From Escherichia phage inny: DNA of 64,000 nucleotides. Below are positions 390-53,474 of this stretch, one piece after another. The DNA is taken from the sequence record MN850601.1; one strand, given 5' to 3'. The notes beneath the pieces were generated by a model. The model saw only the letters and a list, made by a program, of their open reading frames with translations. It was not told the origin of the DNA and did not search any database. A program made the position numbers and the translations under genes. How positions within the stretch are numbered: the stretch's first letter is position 1; the number at the start of each line of letters is the position of its first letter.

Positions 390-402
390 AATACCTCCAA
401 TA

Positions 403-420
403 AGCCCCCGAAGGGGCTTT
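403..420. terminator. GC hairpin AGCCCCCGAAGGGGCT, intrinsic terminator candidate
   Basis: perfect GC stem just downstream of the stop of the 426..1148 gene; T-rich run on plus strand; same hairpin in reverse complement recurs at 48041..48056. Confidence 0.5.
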
Positions 421-48040: not shown

Positions 48041-48066
48041 AAGCCCCTTCGGGGGCTTATTGTTTA
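48041..48066 (+). terminator. intrinsic terminator (AGCCCC-TTCG-GGGGCT + T-run)
   Basis: hairpin is the exact reverse complement of the one at 403..420. Confidence 0.65.
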
Positions 48067-48076
48067 AGGAGATTAA

Positions 48077-50896
48077 ATGTATCCTATTCCTTTATTTATG
48101 TCAACAACATCAGCTTCAGTAGTAACAGCTACATCTATAACTACTTCCTCTATTGGTATTGCAATAGTTGGTGGTAAAAAACAACTGACATACACAGTTA
48201 CACCGGAAGATGGTGCATTATTTGATATAGCTTTTTCATCTTCAGATAATACCAAAATGGTTATAGATAATAGTGGTATGATGGAGTTTGTTGCCGAAGG
48301 TGGTTTTGATGCAATAATGACAGCTAAAAATAATTTAGGTGCTGTCTTAACTGATCAATCTGGTGGTTATGCTTCAGAATTAAGTGTGTACACTGAAAGT
48401 CTATCGGCTATGGATGTAGGCACTACTCAACAGTTGGTTGCTACAATCAGTCCAGAAGGTGCTAAAGACCTTCCAGATATGGTAATTACATACACCACAA
48501 CAGATCCAGAAGTAGCTACTGTAAGCCCTACAGGGTTAATAACTGCTCTTAAAGATGGCGGTTGCCGTATAGGTTGTACTGCAACGTATCAAGGAACAGT
48601 TGTGGCCTCTGATAGTTCTTATTTAGGTGTTAATGCTATTCCTGTTATTTCTAATGTAACAGCCGTGGCAAACAGCTATGGAGACGTTCGTGTTGCTTGG
48701 GATGTAACTGATCCTCTAGATGGTGATACTTATACTGTAGAAGTATTAGATTTAAGTAATAATAGTGTTCAGTGGACTACAACAACCACGAATACTCATG
48801 CTTACTTTGATATCTCTGACTCTATTCCTCTTTATGGGTTTGCTCCAACATACCTTAAAATTAGCGTTAAGAGCACCAAAGCAGCAGCCGTTATCTTTAA
48901 TAACTCAATAGCTACAGATGATTCGTTCATTAAAGAAGTTATTGTCTTTGCTGGACAAGATAACGTAAATGCACACTTTACAGAACTATCTGGTGCAAAT
49001 AAAGCAGCAATGGGTAGCACAACAGCCCGTAATGCATATGCTACGCAACGTGGTTTAGCAAATGCTGAAGTTCTTCCGTTAAATACAGCTTCTGGATCAT
49101 CAGCAGCAGATAAATATGCTGACGATAAAGCTGGAACAGGTACACCAGATAACTACTGGTATGATCTGGATAACACAGCAGATGGGCCATGCTTAACTAA
49201 CTTTATCACTAAAGTCACACCTTATGCAAGTAAGGTTAAAGCAATTATTTGGGGACAAGGTGAAAATGATGCTGTATCAGCATCTTCGACTGTTGCAGGT
49301 AGGTACAGTAACACTACACGTTACCATGATGCTACGATAGCTATCTTTGATAAGATGCGTACAATAGTTCCTGCTTCTCAAGCAAAAATTGTTTGGCAGA
49401 TCCTAGGACGTTCTTATTTATATGGTGTAGAAGTTAATGGTGTGGATTGGCAGAAGTACAGAAATGTACAAAGAACCATCTCTACAGCACGTGATGATGT
49501 TATCATTGGTTCTTGGGTAGATGGTGCTGAACGTTACAGTGGTTATGTTTATGAAGAAGGTATTGATGGTCGTATCCATTATATTTCTTCTGTATACCAA
49601 ACAGCAGCTACAAAACTTGCTAAATCAGCAGCAGACGGTACAGACTTAACATCAACGTCACCTGTTTGGGTTGATATGGCTGTTCCAACTGGAGCAACAG
49701 CTACTTCCCAACCTAATCAAGATACAATTTTAGCATGGGATGCTCAAGGCTATAGTAAACACTACTTCCGTAATATTAACGTCTTAACCGCATCTGTATT
49801 AACTGAACAAACGCTTAATACGAACAGTTATACGTTTACCTATGCAGATCAAGTAGAACAATATGGTTTTGCAGCAGGAACTACTATATTTGATGTTGCA
49901 TATTATGACGAAGCAAATGATGTGTTATCTCCTTTAGTACGTTTTAATGTTAACGTTACAGCAGGAACCGTAGAAGATAAACCTGTCGTGATGGACTATG
50001 ATTTGACGCAAGAAACTCTTCCATCAGATGTTAAGGTTAATGGTGGGAACTCTTTTGCTCGTGCTTCTGGAGATATACTTGTAGCCACTAACACCTTGGT
50101 TGCTCCGTTGGAGTATGTTGGTAATACCCCTGTAGGTAGACGTGTAACAGCTAACACAGCTTCACAAATTTTTGTCAACAACGCCTTAACAAGTGCAAGC
50201 CCGTGGGTAAAGACCAACTTAACTGTTGCAGCTTCATCTGATAAATCTCCGGCTGGAACTACTGCCAATGTATTCAAATTAACTCCGACTACAACCTCTG
50301 GTAGTCATATCTTAACTGCAACATATACTAACGCGTACAACATATCTGCCGGACGTAACTGGTCTGCCTCTGTTTTCTTGAAAGCAAACGGGATTACTAA
50401 GGCCAAACTAAGATTAAAAGCAGGAACTGAAGTTAATGAGGGTACTTTTGATTTAGCAGCAGGTACATTCACAGGAAGTGAAGCTAATATTATATCTATG
50501 GGCAACGGTTGGTATCGTGCTATTCTGCATAAAACAGGGATAGCCAAACAGTCCTTCATAAGTTTTGAAATAATTGCCTTGGATGCAACTGGTGCGGAGA
50601 TTTTCGCTGGAGATGGTACTAGTAACCTTGCAGTTTGGTTGCCACAGCTTGAAGGTGCTTCTACAGGAGAAACATCAAAAGCTGGATCGCCTTATGTCTG
50701 CACATATCCTGGAAATTTAGGAGGAGTATCCTTCACTATACCAAGGAACGGACATACTGGTGTGGATGTTTACTATTCCAACGGAGACGTTGTTCGTGAC
50801 GTATTCTCTGGTACGGCATCTACTTGGACAATAAACTACTCCAGTTTGTACGATTGGGGATCAGTCTTTATTACAGGTTTGAAATATTACGACTAA
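48077..50896 (+). CDS. tail fibre/receptor-binding protein with sialate-O-acetylesterase-like (SASA) domain
   Basis: 939 aa; AAGGAG SD; Thr/Ser-rich Ig-like N-terminal repeats; esterase-type motifs VFAGQDNVNAHF and IIWGQGENDA. Confidence 0.5.
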   Translation: MYPIPLFMSTTSASVVTATSITTSSIGIAIVGGKKQLTYTVTPEDGALFDIAFSSSDNTKMVIDNSGMMEFVAEGGFDAIMTAKNNLGAVLTDQSGGYASELSVYTESLSAMDVGTTQQLVATISPEGAKDLPDMVITYTTTDPEVATVSPTGLITALKDGGCRIGCTATYQGTVVASDSSYLGVNAIPVISNVTAVANSYGDVRVAWDVTDPLDGDTYTVEVLDLSNNSVQWTTTTTNTHAYFDISDSIPLYGFAPTYLKISVKSTKAAAVIFNNSIATDDSFIKEVIVFAGQDNVNAHFTELSGANKAAMGSTTARNAYATQRGLANAEVLPLNTASGSSAADKYADDKAGTGTPDNYWYDLDNTADGPCLTNFITKVTPYASKVKAIIWGQGENDAVSASSTVAGRYSNTTRYHDATIAIFDKMRTIVPASQAKIVWQILGRSYLYGVEVNGVDWQKYRNVQRTISTARDDVIIGSWVDGAERYSGYVYEEGIDGRIHYISSVYQTAATKLAKSAADGTDLTSTSPVWVDMAVPTGATATSQPNQDTILAWDAQGYSKHYFRNINVLTASVLTEQTLNTNSYTFTYADQVEQYGFAAGTTIFDVAYYDEANDVLSPLVRFNVNVTAGTVEDKPVVMDYDLTQETLPSDVKVNGGNSFARASGDILVATNTLVAPLEYVGNTPVGRRVTANTASQIFVNNALTSASPWVKTNLTVAASSDKSPAGTTANVFKLTPTTTSGSHILTATYTNAYNISAGRNWSASVFLKANGITKAKLRLKAGTEVNEGTFDLAAGTFTGSEANIISMGNGWYRAILHKTGIAKQSFISFEIIALDATGAEIFAGDGTSNLAVWLPQLEGASTGETSKAGSPYVCTYPGNLGGVSFTIPRNGHTGVDVYYSNGDVVRDVFSGTASTWTINYSSLYDWGSVFITGLKYYD

Positions 50897-50898
50897 TA

Positions 50899-50930
50899 AA
50901 AAAGGAGCCATTAGGCTCCTTTTCTTTTAT
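50899..50930. terminator. bidirectional terminator (AGGAGCC-ATTA-GGCTCCT flanked by A-run and T-run)
   Basis: sits between convergent plus-strand fibre gene and minus-strand genes. Confidence 0.7.
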
Positions 50931-50931
50931 C

Positions 50932-51363
50932 TTAATCAGTGAAAATTACGCTTACATCTTCTTTAGAGAAGAGTTTATGATCTTCACCTTTTGTCTCAAG
51001 AGTTTCATACAGGTTAAGAAGTTCTGAAACATCTTTCTCTACCAGTTTCTTCAATGTTGCAATTTTCTGTTTGCGACTCTTAATACGTTCAGCTACAACC
51101 TTACGCTGGTATCCGGCAGTACGATAACCTGAGAAAGTTACACCAGTGAGACTTGCAGTTACAGGATCGTAGTGACGTTCAATCTGAAACTTATTAAAAG
51201 GTACAGCGTCATCACGAATAATCTTACCGCCATTACTTACCTGACGAAGACCAGTAACTTGTTCCAGTCGTGCCATAGAAATCTTTGGAGACAGACCAGA
51301 GTCCAGGTTCATACCGTTGTTAATCAGTGCTTTCAGGGTGATTTTGCTGTTCAGTGTACTCAT
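50932..51363 (-). CDS. hypothetical protein (143 aa)
   Basis: ORF track; ATG at 51363 behind GGAGGAA; overlaps methyltransferase stop. Confidence 0.5.
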   Translation of the reverse strand: MSTLNSKITLKALINNGMNLDSGLSPKISMARLEQVTGLRQVSNGGKIIRDDAVPFNKFQIERHYDPVTASLTGVTFSGYRTAGYQRKVVAERIKSRKQKIATLKKLVEKDVSELLNLYETLETKGEDHKLFSKEDVSVIFTD

Positions 51364-52051
51364 TTAGTCGTTCCTCCGCTTGCTTAAAAATATTTACATC
51401 GGCTTCACAGCCTAAGTATTCTCTACCTGTTAAAAGTGCCGCAACTTGTGTTGTTGCACTTCCAGAGAAGAAGTCTAAGACTACATCTCCTTCGTTGGTG
51501 TGTATATTAATAAGGTCACAAAACAAAGTCAAGTGTTTTTGTGTTGGATGAAAACGATCTGCTCCTTGATAGATAGGATACTCAAACACACCCTTATGGT
51601 AGGAAGCATTGAAGGTTGGCTTCGAACCTTTAACACAAACAATAGCCATCTCTTTAGCGTTACTAAGATAGTTAACACCACTGTTGATGGGTACAGGGTT
51701 TGTTTTAATCCATTCGATAGTACGGAACATACGAAAACCAAGCGGTTCAAGGATTTCACGTAGCTCCTGGATCTTCCAGATATCATACCAAACTATGCAA
51801 GTACCACCTTTTCTAAGCACCCTGTAGGCTTCTTTGAATACTTCTTTAAAATAAGGAATATCTACAACATCCCAATCACCGAAGTTGTAAGATACACGGA
51901 ATCTATCCGTATCTTTTCCAGTAGGCTCTCCAGACTGAAAATTTGTGTCACGAGAAATAGCATATGGTGGGTCAGTAAGAATCAAATCTACACTATTGCT
52001 TTCGAGGGTTTGCAGGTAGTTTAATGCAGTGTTGTTTACAAATTCGCTCAT
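51320..52051 (-). CDS. DNA methyltransferase (N6-adenine/N4-cytosine class, DPPY motif)
   Basis: 243 aa; motif IV LILTDPPYAIS preceding motif I VVLDFFSGSATT. Confidence 0.85.
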   Translation of the reverse strand: MSEFVNNTALNYLQTLESNSVDLILTDPPYAISRDTNFQSGEPTGKDTDRFRVSYNFGDWDVVDIPYFKEVFKEAYRVLRKGGTCIVWYDIWKIQELREILEPLGFRMFRTIEWIKTNPVPINSGVNYLSNAKEMAIVCVKGSKPTFNASYHKGVFEYPIYQGADRFHPTQKHLTLFCDLINIHTNEGDVVLDFFSGSATTQVAALLTGREYLGCEADVNIFKQAEERLNEYTEQQNHPESTD

Positions 52052-52070
52052 TATATCTCCTTCAAAGAAA

Positions 52071-52088
52071 AGGAGCCGTTAGGCTCCT
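52071..52088 (-). terminator. intrinsic terminator hairpin AGGAGCC-GTTA-GGCTCCT
   Basis: near-identical to hairpin at 50903..50920; A-run on plus strand gives U-tract for minus-strand transcripts ending after the SSB-like gene. Confidence 0.55.
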
Positions 52089-52111
52089 TATATTCACACA
52101 ATACTTAACTA

Positions 52112-53059
52112 TTAGAAACAGTGCAGGAAGTTTCGACCATACTGCAAACCAATAGGAGCAAATGGGATATCATCATCGAAATCTTGAACAACAGGTTCTG
52201 GTTCTTTCGGTGCTGGTTCTTTCTTCTCTACTTTTTTAGTTTCTTTCTTAACTTCTTGTACTGGGGTAGACATTCCACGGATAGCAGCAGCTACTTTATC
52301 AGACAAAGCAAGAACTTCACGAGCAGCTTCAATAATCTCTTCTGCCGTTACAGTTTTACCTGTATGATCACGACAAGCGTTAAGAATTGCGTGTCCAACT
52401 GAAGCACCAAGATCATAGTCAGTCACATCAACGCCACGATCTTTAGCAATTTCTGCTTTCAGAGTAACAGTTGCAGATTGTACCACACCAGCCAAGTCGA
52501 AAGCATCACCTTTCACACCAGCACGTAGAAGCTCCAGAGCGCCGTTTACAGCGTGTCCTGTTTCAATCCCTACGGTATCACGTTTTTTGTAGTTAGGCTT
52601 GCTACCTTCGTTATTAGATGGCTTATTTCCACCTTTTGAAGAAGATTGTGCTTGCTGAACACCTTCTGTTGAAAGAATAGTGATTTTACCTTTAGAGGAA
52701 TTGTAGTATGTTTTGCCATTCCATTCAGAAGGTTTAACATCCATAGTTAGTTCTACACCTTTTTCGATAGTAACCCACTTATCACCATCTTTAACTTGCA
52801 GGTTTTCATGTTCTGGGTGCAGTTTAACTTCACCTAGGCTAACCCAAACACCTTTATCATCAGCACCAGCACCTTTCTCTTTAATAAGCAGGGATGCTTT
52901 GTGAGTTGATTCAATTTTCTTATCTGGTTGACCTGCAACCTTAATATAAGAGACTTTCATTTCATCAAACTTATCCAGTTTGACATATTCAACGATACCT
53001 TCAGCCCAGAATGCTTCTTTTTTAGTACGACGGTCGATTTCAGAATTAATTACTGGCAT
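52112..53059 (-). CDS. putative single-stranded DNA-binding protein
   Basis: 315 aa; acidic DFDDDIPF motif (classic SSB tail) 15 residues from the C-terminus; Gly/Ser/Asn-rich linker; replication-module context. Confidence 0.5.
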   Translation of the reverse strand: MPVINSEIDRRTKKEAFWAEGIVEYVKLDKFDEMKVSYIKVAGQPDKKIESTHKASLLIKEKGAGADDKGVWVSLGEVKLHPEHENLQVKDGDKWVTIEKGVELTMDVKPSEWNGKTYYNSSKGKITILSTEGVQQAQSSSKGGNKPSNNEGSKPNYKKRDTVGIETGHAVNGALELLRAGVKGDAFDLAGVVQSATVTLKAEIAKDRGVDVTDYDLGASVGHAILNACRDHTGKTVTAEEIIEAAREVLALSDKVAAAIRGMSTPVQEVKKETKKVEKKEPAPKEPEPVVQDFDDDIPFAPIGLQYGRNFLHCF

Positions 53060-53075
53060 AAATTCTCCTCTATAA

Positions 53076-53474
53076 TTACATTACTTTAACACAAAACTCT
53101 CGTAAAAGAGTAGCGTCAGTTTCTTCCAACAGGTATTTACCAAGACCAATACCAAATCCTATTTCACCACTTTCGAAATGGAGGATTTGTATCTTTTCTC
53201 CACCAAGATTAATTACTTTTGCTTTTCCAGGATTATCCAAAACATCTCGTATTGTATCCTGTAGTAACATAAGCTCACGTTTTGTGATAGTGGTTTCAGA
53301 TATCTCTTTGTTTTCTACTCTCACTGTTAAACGATTGTATCCACCAAAGAGACATAGTATTTGAATAAAAAAGGTATTATCTTGAGGTTCAACATCTTTT
53401 TTGGTTAGCTCAAGACGATTAGTTTCTCTACTGTAGAACGTCTCGACTAAGATTTTAGAACGATTATCTGTCAT
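53076..53474 (-). CDS. hypothetical protein (132 aa)
   Basis: ORF track. Confidence 0.5.
   Translation of the reverse strand: MTDNRSKILVETFYSRETNRLELTKKDVEPQDNTFFIQILCLFGGYNRLTVRVENKEISETTITKRELMLLQDTIRDVLDNPGKAKVINLGGEKIQILHFESGEIGFGIGLGKYLLEETDATLLREFCVKVM

Follow-up and report, generated by a model that had tools for sequence, protein, structure and literature searches.

In the 64,000-nt stretch of phage DNA analysed here (MN850601.1, hereafter the window), two nearly identical hairpins flank a DNA methyltransferase gene and a small partner gene. We consider it probable (about 0.8) that these hairpins are Rho-independent terminators which insulate, in a lytic phi92-like phage, a small accessory module from the genes on either side, and that their resemblance comes from the re-use of terminator sequences. 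The window was 99% identical to phages ALITA, alia and Paula, which by sequence similarity places it among the phi92-like phages of the genus Justusliebigvirus.

Anatomy of the two hairpins

The first hairpin, T1, was found at 50903-50920 (AGGAGCCATTAGGCTCCT) and the second, T2, at 52071-52088 (AGGAGCCGTTAGGCTCCT), and only a single loop base differed between them. Searching the window with the pattern AGGAGCCNNNNGGCTCCT (AGGAGCC-N4-GGCTCCT) gave 2 matches where 0 were expected, and 0 matches in each of 100 shuffles, which bore out the original prediction that such hairpins flank the cassette one loop base apart. Together with their flanks, T1 and T2 formed a 27-nt direct repeat with 89% identity (50900-50926 and 52068-52094), and because the stems are palindromic they also repeated in the inverted sense, over 26 nt with 85% identity (50902-50927 and 52064-52089).

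Anatomy, fold and the annotation of Paula indicated that T1 (50894..50929, assigned to no single strand) would be a bidirectional intrinsic terminator at the convergent junction of the tail-protein gene and the gp154-like gene. Its core, AGGAGCC-ATTA-GGCTCCT (50903-50920), was lengthened by A/T runs, and the stem had 10 pairs (5 G-C) with a loop of 4 nt. A U-tract stood 3' of the stem on both strands (TTTTCTTTT on the plus strand, TTTTTTATT on the minus strand), and the RNA folded with -15.7 kcal/mol on the plus and -19.1 kcal/mol on the minus strand, with none of the shuffles as stable. The same three kinds of evidence indicated that T2 (52056..52089, minus strand), between the SSB-like gene and the methyltransferase gene, would be an intrinsic terminator or attenuator. 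Along the minus strand its order was AAGGAGCC-TAAC-GGCTCCTT (52070-52089), U-tract TTTTCTTT and methyltransferase ribosome-binding site GAAGGAGA, with 11 nt from the end of T2 to the ribosome-binding site and 23 nt to the ATG. T2 folded with -13.6 kcal/mol (8 pairs, 5 of them G-C, and a 4-nt loop) and was unchanged in 8 of the 8 Justusliebigvirus sequences read.

Both hairpins had what characterises a Rho-independent terminator, that is, a GC-rich stem of at least 5 bp, a loop of 3-8 nt and a 3' U-tract. The Paula record (LR865361) lists T2 under terminator 028 and T1, on both strands, under terminators 029-031, so the two were already known as terminators from the annotation of a public genome nearly identical to the window. 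A search of both strands gave no sigma-70 promoter beside T1 or T2, and the four weak (9/12) matches across 50850-52250 all fell within genes. An Rfam search with the hairpins gave no family at threshold and only sub-threshold matches, to the terminator part of sRNA models, so a known RNA family was rejected.

It is very unlikely in our judgement that the stem-loops serve chiefly in RNA processing or stability, or in controlling translation of the methyltransferase, and not as terminators. T2 does sit directly upstream of the methyltransferase ribosome-binding site, its 5' arm holds a Shine-Dalgarno-like AAGGAG, and CUCCUU in its 3' arm complements the true ribosome-binding site 11 nt downstream; in the metagenomic contig L012, the same 34 nt of hairpin, U-tract and ribosome-binding site also stand intact 5' of the methyltransferase gene, while its coding sequences share no more than 80-90% identity with those of the window. 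But the anatomy of T1 and T2, U-tracts included, is canonical for terminators, Rfam held no family above threshold, and the sequences L011, L020 and L019 have other hairpins at the T2 position, so the sequence-specific pairing is not conserved.

Probable re-use of terminator sequences

For the reading of T1 and T2 as re-used terminators, the terminators of the whole genome are the proper comparison. The 31 annotated terminator loci of Paula group into families sharing identical stem-loops. Within the tested set (n = 29), at least 10 nt were in common for 20 of 406 pairs, and T1 and T2 were the sole adjacent pair of the same family, against 1.37 expected (P 0.78); 13 other pairs shared at least 12 nt, a length which T1 and T2 did not reach. 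Elsewhere in the window, AAGCCCCTTCGGGGGCTTATTG was identical over 22 nt at 398-419 (minus strand) and 48041-48062 (plus strand), where 0 such matches were expected. Both of these hairpins have a UUCG loop when read on the strand of the adjoining genes; the plus-strand copy, AAGCCCC-TTCG-GGGGCTT (+ATTG), lies between two tail genes and the other between two minus-strand genes, and by position the Paula counterpart of the latter appears to be terminator 041, with loop TTCT. The identity of this second pair had been foreseen correctly, while the coordinates given for it (403..420 and 48041..48056) were off by 1-2 nt.

A 61-nt query with T1 had matches in 323 phage records, and in Tlsvirus phSE-5 the T1-like match (36/38 nt) likewise lies between a tail-fibre gene and an SSB gene. 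The T1/T2 stem was also present on five unrelated metagenome contigs. The hairpin repeats are far above random expectation, yet they are ordinary among the terminators of the same genome. On these comparisons, the near-identity of T1 and T2 reads as this phage group's habit of re-using few terminator sequences, and as such is unremarkable. The hairpins themselves are of little consequence, being standard terminators whose likeness follows a genome-wide habit, and look-alike terminators by themselves are no ground for calling mobile-element ends in phage genomes.

T1 and T2 could also be alike through independent recruitment of a very common solution (A-run, GGAGCC, tetraloop, GGCTCC, T-run), which we regard as possible but doubtful. 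The stem recurs in hundreds of unrelated phages and on unrelated metagenome contigs, several further stem-loop sequences are re-used in the genome, and chance gives about 1.4 adjacent same-family pairs per genome, all of which suits convergence; however, T1 is clearly orthologous to the GGGAGCC/GGGAACC-type hairpin of the sister lineages, and T2 is one compensated base pair away from that type, which makes duplication at least as economical. Because AGGAGCC-type hairpins occurred at these two sites only, in the window as well as in the annotated Paula terminator set, a local duplication or recombination origin of the pair is plausible alongside independent recruitment. The T1 of Justusliebigvirus was closer to T2, in stem and loop, than to the orthologous T1 of L011, L012 and ESCO13, and this would fit gene conversion between T1 and T2.

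The gene pair and the tail/SSB junction

Between the two terminators are the two genes of the original prediction, a 143-aa protein and a DPPY-motif methyltransferase, which were confirmed as open reading frames at 50932-51363 and 51320-52051 on the minus strand. The second (51320..52051) encodes a putative orphan beta-class DNA methyltransferase of 243 aa, the orthologue of phi92 gp155. Its match to PF01555 (N6_N4_Mtase; E 1.9e-30, 106.9 bits) was above the gathering cut-off of 26.7, and DPPY (residues 27-30) is N-terminal to FSGS (195-198), which is the DPPY-before-FxGxG order of beta-class N6/N4 methyltransferases. The nearest solved structures were 5hek/5hfj (E 1e-28), an adenine-specific methyltransferase, and type II methyltransferase models were also matched; the enzyme is probably of the N6-adenine type. 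No restriction endonuclease was found beside it, the neighbours being the 143-aa protein and the SSB-like gene, so a restriction-modification system was rejected for want of an adjoining cognate endonuclease. The partner gene (50932..51363, minus strand) encodes the gp154-like protein of 143 aa and starts inside the end of the methyltransferase gene, the two having 44 nt in common. An AF2 model from 4 sequences was unusable (pLDDT 53), but with 29 sequences the pLDDT was 95; the protein is predicted to begin with a winged-helix-like domain and to end in a long coiled coil. A profile search of the PDB with this protein gave coiled-coil noise only, and PADLOC gave no match.

The cassette was present in 55 of 55 Justusliebigvirus records, while two sister phages, Phapecoctavirus ESCO13 and Klebsiella phage phi1_175008, have tail and SSB-like genes that converge on one hairpin without a cassette, the tail-to-SSB gap being 63 nt and 48 nt, respectively. 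The single hairpin of ESCO13, nieznany and the Klebsiella phage has the same flanks as T1 and is orthologous to it, and relative to these sister lineages the gene pair would be an accessory insertion. Among other deposited phages, no close copy of the cassette was found outside Justusliebigvirus: methyltransferase matches were all below 60% identity, and gp154 had one distant match only. A search of 5,426 complete E. coli genomes gave no match, so an E. coli or prophage origin was rejected. The GC content of the cassette (39.1%) was at the 76th percentile of same-size windows and close to that of the window (37.7%), and GC3 of its genes was 0.32 and 0.33 against a gene mean of 0.27 (sd 0.05); a foreign origin from composition was therefore rejected. 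The proposed moron-like insertion stood in so far as the pair is accessory compared with ESCO13 and the Klebsiella phage and the unit recurs elsewhere, but not with regard to composition, which is ordinary, or to a sigma-70 promoter of its own, which it does not have. The original prediction had also named what would speak against it, and that is largely what was found: presence in 55/55 records, ordinary composition, and generic terminators with repeat families genome-wide. The hairpins are ordinary terminators around an accessory pair at an insertion-prone junction, and there is no special mobility signature.

The two genes were found together in unrelated phage contexts, from which they appear to move as a unit. 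A stronger version would be an obligate two-component DNA-modification module, in which a dimeric DNA-binding partner directs or regulates the enzyme and which moves between unrelated phages, settling preferentially at junctions bounded by terminators, through exchange within their short, palindromic and widely shared stems. We regard this as unlikely; if true, landing by exchange in shared terminator stems would account for the likeness of T1 and T2. The methyltransferase is always accompanied by a small uncharacterised DNA-binding-like protein, and the pairing is testable for evasion of host restriction.

The junction itself has taken up more than this cassette. On the plus-strand side, the 939-aa tail protein (48077..50896, with a Big_2 domain) is the last gene of the tail cluster and would be ended by T1; its 3' third (49961-50898) is absent in phi92, and the right boundary of this indel is exactly at T1. 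On the minus-strand side, the gene of the SSB-like protein (52112..53059), the orthologue of phi92 gp156, closes the replication cluster upstream of T2, and several records label the product single-stranded DNA-binding protein. Phage nieznany has a full 164-aa endonuclease gene after its SSB-like gene (phrog_2340, E 1.5e-48), which PHROGs matched and which neither Pfam nor NCBIfam recognised. The window is 88% identical to nieznany over 52112-52180 and, by this identity, keeps a 36-nt 5' remnant of the endonuclease gene (52105..52140, minus strand), the first 11 codons, reading MVETSCTVSNS*, with the rest deleted. In another frame the remnant DNA encodes a 15-aa extension of the SSB-like protein (52115-52159), and in ESCO13, the Klebsiella phage and L011 this protein has the terminus ...DDDIPF. 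At the L012 junction there is endonuclease-like sequence plus the cassette. The tail/SSB junction is thus best read as an insertion hotspot, a recurrent landing site of accessory genes in phi92-like and phAPEC8-like phages, and knowledge of such a site is useful for comparing and engineering these therapy-relevant phages.

That the hairpins are recombination sites for insertion and loss of the cassette, in the manner of the PeSL elements of T4-type phages, is a different claim, and we think it quite improbable. Exchange between the 22-27-nt repeats would give a circle and leave one hairpin, and the reverse would insert the cassette at a single terminator; the expected products are a circle junction TTCAAAGAAAAGGAGCC-N4-GGCTCCTTTTCTTTTATC and a deletion junction ACGACTAATAAAAAAGGAGCC-N4-GGCTCCTTATATTCACAC. 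The 27-nt direct repeat of 89% identity is consistent with this, the empty site in sister phages holds exactly one hairpin, the cargo at the junction varies (endonuclease in nieznany, endonuclease-like sequence with the cassette in L012), on the tail side an indel ends at T1, and T4-type phages have documented PeSL shuffling and mini-circles (PMC2839356, PMC4122927). However, the cassette is kept in all 55 Justusliebigvirus records, the stem-loops have no sigma-70 promoter, which is a defining component of PeSL, and the register of the U-tracts suggests that T1 and T2 are inverted (26 nt), so that exchange would invert the cassette and not excise it. No hybrid junction with T1 on the left and T2 on the right was found in viral and metagenome collections, a weak test as these hold only three Justusliebigvirus-like contigs. 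The cassette is at the same junction in L011, L012 and L020/L021 with non-matching hairpins; L019 has an unrelated hairpin pair around it, and L010 has no hairpin downstream. Matching hairpins would therefore not be a conserved property of the cassette, and the hairpins do not appear to be its ends. Of the proposed recombination hotspot between terminators, what remains is a junction that takes varied genes and T1 as an indel boundary; the non-matching hairpins elsewhere went the other way, as did, more weakly, the failure to find a deletion product in the records and collections searched.

With T1 and T2 taken as re-used terminators, a working order can be proposed. T1 lies where the plus-strand tail cluster meets the minus-strand replication cluster, and since it has a U-tract on both strands, both transcripts would end there. 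The stretch from T2 to the methyltransferase gene holds no sigma-70 promoter, so the module would most likely have low expression, from replication-operon transcripts that read through T2. The methyltransferase would be translationally linked to the winged-helix-like/coiled-coil protein, and the module would presumably modify phage DNA against host restriction. The ancestral order was probably tail gene, one terminator and SSB gene, as in ESCO13 and the Klebsiella phage today; the junction would then have gained the endonuclease gene, now a remnant, and the methyltransferase pair, and T2 would most simply have arrived with those gains, as another copy of the generic terminator (GGAGCC/GGCTCC) of the junction. 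The relationships of DNA polymerase and SSB among the lineages conflict, which points to mosaicism, and either polarity, gain or loss of the cassette, would be compatible with them.

Comparison with known systems

The morons of lambdoid phages are reportedly extra genes, set between two genes that adjoin each other in related phages. The module resembles them in lying between genes adjacent in sister phages and in being delimited by terminator hairpins, but it lacks both a promoter of its own and an atypical composition, and the terminator downstream of it, T1, is the one ancestral to the junction; as the phage is lytic, expression in lysogens does not come into question. The attC site of integrons, which goes with an IntI integrase, has paired core sites and forms an imperfect palindrome some 57-141 nt long. 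T1 and T2 are perfect palindromes of 18-24 nt, the loop of T2 happens to read GTTAGGC but has no partner core site, and the annotation of Paula, whose genome is near-identical, lists no integrase in this region, so attC was rejected on hairpin size and for want of such an annotation.

In T4-type phages, a PeSL combines a strong early promoter of the sigma-70 type with a stem-loop (Arbiol et al. 2010, PMC2839356; see also Comeau et al. 2014, PMC4122927). Like PeSL, T1 and T2 are repeated stem-loop terminators around non-essential genes, with gene content varying between related phages. Unlike PeSL, which has the promoter joined to the stem-loop, T1 and T2 have none, and membership was rejected on this ground. 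PeSL indels also separate very close relatives, whereas the cassette is fixed (55/55) and its indel is seen only against other genera, and PeSL yields mini-circles, whereas for T1/T2 there were no circle or deletion junctions in collections holding three Justusliebigvirus-like contigs.

The free-standing endonuclease genes of large lytic phages have their counterpart in the intergenic insertion at the same junction in nieznany, but the window copy is only a remnant, by which the SSB-like protein is 15 residues longer. The orphan DNA methyltransferases of phages (Murphy et al. 2013, as cited in PMC12210895) and 5hek/5hfj share with the window enzyme the PF01555 domain, DPPY before FxGxG and no adjoining restriction enzyme, and a paper on a related phage gives four methyltransferase genes per genome. 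Unlike them, the window enzyme has a consistent partner, a small winged-helix-like/coiled-coil gene that in most cases overlaps it. The closest comparison for the hairpins is with Rho-independent terminators of the convergent bidirectional type, with which they share the GC-rich stem of 7-10 bp, the 4-nt loop, the intergenic site just past a stop codon and the U-tract (on both strands for T1), with no structural difference.

Hairpins at the tail/SSB junction

Over its whole extent, window region 50000-53200 shared 98-99% identity with Escherichia phages ALITA, alia and Paula and with 15 further Justusliebigvirus genomes, and the window can be assigned to Justusliebigvirus (subfamily Stephanstirmvirinae, phi92 group). 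By correspondence with phi92, the locus comprises the gene for a 939-aa tail protein (48077-50896, plus strand) and, on the minus strand, gp154 for a 143-aa protein (50932-51363), the methyltransferase gene gp155 (51320-52051) and the SSB-like gene gp156 (52112-53059), beyond which lie gp157 and then DNA polymerase. The original prediction was that the gp154-gp155 cassette is bracketed by near-identical hairpins, and both were found, at 50903-50920 (T1, next to gp154) and 52071-52088 (T2, between the SSB-like and methyltransferase genes), with only two AGGAGCCNNNNGGCTCCT matches in 64 kb and none in 100 shuffles. Extended by their flanking bases, the two hairpins make up a direct repeat of 27 nt (89% identity) and, because the stems are palindromic, also an inverted repeat of 26 nt (85% identity). 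A second predicted hairpin pair was likewise present: AAGCCCCTTCGGGGGCTTATTG is perfect over 22 nt at 398-419 (minus) and 48041-48062 (plus), and both copies are intergenic, with a UUCG loop when read on the strand of the neighbouring genes.

Judged by sequence, T1 and T2 have all the features of intrinsic terminators. T1 (50894-50929, both strands) lies between the converging stop codons of the tail-protein gene and gp154, has T-runs on either side and folds at -15.7 and -19.1 kcal/mol on the two strands, and no shuffle was as stable. T2 reads AAGGAGCC-TAAC-GGCTCCTT and then TTTTCTTT on the minus strand, lying 22 nt past the SSB-like stop codon and ending 11 nt ahead of the methyltransferase ribosome-binding site. 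In the Paula record (LR865361), terminator 028 is annotated at T2 and terminators 029-031, covering both strands, at T1; the PATM record has terminator features there too. No sigma-70-like promoter was found beside T1 or T2.

Among eight Justusliebigvirus sequences both stems were invariant and the T2 loop was always GTTA. The T1 loop (window 50910-50913; compared with loci L015, L008, L009 and L016) varied: four sequences had ATTA, and TAAT and TATT occurred in two each. Because TAAT and ATTA are exact reverse complements, the best explanation for TAAT is that the T1 loop was flipped between its palindromic arms. T1 (plus) with the flipped loop matched T2 (minus) in 25 of 26 nt, U-tract included, so the orientation of the repeat is not fixed.

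Distribution and content of the cassette

The proposal of a moron-like insertion was checked by composition and synteny. Cassette DNA was present in 55 records, with 97.9% as the lowest identity, and just as many records matched the adjoining SSB/gp157 region (threshold 95%); within the genus it was present in 55 of 55 records. Its composition was ordinary (GC 39.1% vs 37.7%, 76th percentile of same-size windows; GC3 about 1 sd over the gene mean). Outside the genus, Phapecoctavirus ESCO13 and Klebsiella phage phi1_175008 lacked the cassette and had a single hairpin, with only 63 and 48 nt, respectively, between the tail gene and the SSB-like gene. In ESCO13 this hairpin reads GGGAACC-CGCAA-AGGTTCCC and has the same flanks as T1, TAATAAAAAAGG...TTTTCTTTTAT. 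Of the two window hairpins, it is thus T1 that is orthologous to the ancestral terminator of the junction, and T2 is additional. Across genera the cassette appears as an insertion; within Justusliebigvirus it does not. All 55 deposited genomes retain it. Deletion by exchange between T1 and T2 would place the left flank of T1 next to the right flank of T2, and a scan for RAAAAGGAGCC-N4-GGCTCCTTATATT returned only native T2, in three Justusliebigvirus-like contigs, and unrelated generic hairpins.

Among the remaining deposited phages, tblastn gave no close copy of either cassette protein: the methyltransferase matches there stayed under 60% identity, and for the 143-aa protein one distant match, in a Pseudoalteromonas phage, was the only hit. 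The region is mosaic, with a patchy distribution of the cassette, and its genes give conflicting relationships: the DNA polymerase of the cassette-less Klebsiella phage is nearest to the window (88.6%), followed by that of the cassette-bearing contig L011 (85.5%), but SSB places the two cassette-less phages together.

The two genes also occur as a pair elsewhere. Of 12 further loci, 10 had the 143-aa gene directly after a small PF01555 methyltransferase gene, usually overlapping it; these loci cover at least three unrelated genomic contexts, and two are too short to tell. The exception was Pseudoalteromonas phage J2-1, with no methyltransferase among the neighbouring genes checked. Divergent metagenomic contigs L011 and L020 carry the cassette at the same SSB/tail junction, as does the 5-kb contig L012 with an extra endonuclease-like sequence, while the 2-kb contig L021 has other genes upstream of the methyltransferase. 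The L010 cassette (64% and 44% identity) is set among nucleotide-metabolism genes, and the neighbourhoods in L019, L024/L025 and L026/L027 are also quite different.

In these lineages the flanking hairpins did not match each other. L012 has T2 exactly as in the window and GGGAACCTC-GAAA-GAGGCTCCC as T1; upstream and downstream hairpins are AAGGGGC-TTCG-GCCCCTT and GGGAGCCTC-TTGC-GAGGTTCCC in L011, and GGGGCTG-CTTG-TAGCCCC and AAAGGGAGCC-AAT-GGCTCCCTTT in L020/L021; L019 has another, unrelated pair, and L010 has no downstream hairpin. Therefore, a terminator-like hairpin just before the methyltransferase ribosome-binding site is usual; matching ends are peculiar to Justusliebigvirus, and T1/T2 are not conserved as cassette ends.

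The predicted DPPY-motif methyltransferase matched PF01555 (DPPY at residues 27-30, FSGS at 195) and was nearest to small adenine-specific enzymes (5hek/5hfj, E 1e-28; CcrM N-terminal region) and type II methyltransferase models, with no restriction enzyme next to it. The close relative BME3 is reported to have four methyltransferase genes per genome, ascribed to protection from host restriction (PMC12210895). Paula has two more annotated DNA methyltransferase genes (L005 5349-5858 and 11069-12058, orthologues of phi92 gp056 and gp043), so the cassette enzyme is one of several. The 143-aa protein had no Pfam, NCBIfam or PADLOC match, and its family has only 32 representatives in 1.84 billion proteins. 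An AF2 model from 29 family members (pLDDT 95) has a compact domain at the N terminus and then a helix of 43 residues, a predicted winged-helix-like domain plus coiled coil. One may reasonably guess, but no more than guess, that the protein binds DNA, dimerises and serves the methyltransferase as partner or regulator.

Varied cargo at the junction

The hotspot idea was borne out in that the junction takes varied cargo. In phage nieznany a 164-aa endonuclease gene (phrog_2340, E 1.5e-48) sits between the SSB-like gene and T1. The SSB-like protein terminates in the usual ...DDDIPF in ESCO13, the Klebsiella phage and L011, and that of the window runs 15 residues further (APIGLQYGRNFLHCF). The extension DNA (52112-52180) is 88% identical to nieznany, where the same extension overlaps the endonuclease start, and the window keeps only the first 11 endonuclease codons (52140-52105, minus; MVETSCTVSNS-stop). 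The DNA that encodes the extra residues (52105-52160, minus; vs L018 1852-2400) is the leftover 5' end of an endonuclease gene of which nieznany has an intact copy here. Burying the SSB C-terminal tip might affect SSB partner binding. In L012, the endonuclease-like sequence (...HHEAWHQEHGEGLN) lies between SSB and T2, before the cassette. On the tail side, phi92 has no counterpart of window 49961-50898, which encodes the C-terminal third of the tail protein, and its homology to the window restarts precisely at the foot of T1 (50899). This 939-aa protein, one protein in the window, corresponds to phi92 gp152 plus gp153, with an internal gap (window 48667-48884).

Terminator re-use and known systems

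From the complete Paula genome we took the stem-loops of all 31 loci annotated as terminators. They group into families of re-used sequence: AAAGGGGC-GAAA-GCCCCTTT (four copies), AAACCCGC-TTCG-GCGGGTTT (three), GGCGGGAAA-CCA-TTTCCCGCC (four to five), AGGGCGC-TTNGT-GCGCCCT (three) and the T1/T2 pair. A stem-loop was clear at 29 loci, and of their 406 pairs 20 shared at least 10 nt of stem-loop; one adjacent pair did so (T1/T2), against 1.37 expected by permutation (P 0.78), and 13 other pairs, not T1/T2, shared at least 12 nt. A search with 61 nt around T1 hit 323 phage records of many families, and AAAAAGGAGCC-N4-GGCTCCTTATATT occurred in five unrelated metagenome contigs with no methyltransferase near. 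The T1/T2 resemblance is therefore not special, because the genome re-uses terminator sequences and the hairpin sequence is generic. Salmonella phage phSE-5 (Tlsvirus, Drexlerviridae), an unrelated siphovirus resembling phage T1, has TAATAAAAAAGGAGCC-TTTC-GGCTCCTTTTCTTTTATC, identical in 36 of 38 nt, flanks included (L017 1495-1545 vs window 50894-50931), and again at a tail/SSB junction, where the tail-fibre gene meets an SSB gene whose product ends in DDDIPF; this suggests either exchange of the junction element or strong convergence on it.

The promoter-early stem-loop (PeSL) cassettes of T4-type phages (PMC2839356, PMC4122927) resemble this locus only in having repeated stem-loops around dispensable genes. 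The defining PeSL promoter is absent at T1/T2 and the indel is seen only across genera, not between close relatives, so we rejected a PeSL identity. The Paula early region (L005 28800-38400, beyond the window), where small genes are punctuated each 0.4-3 kb by near-identical terminators of the GGCGGGAAA-CCA-TTTCCCGCC and AGGGCGC-TTNGT-GCGCCCT families, looks more PeSL-like in its terminator layout than the locus described here. As for a moron, the module agrees in position, between genes adjacent in relatives, but it has no promoter of its own and its composition is not atypical. The predicted repeat is real, and the gene pair was rightly taken for an addition at a junction that is plastic, but the hairpins are ordinary, already annotated terminators of a widely shared sequence type and are not conserved as ends of the cassette.
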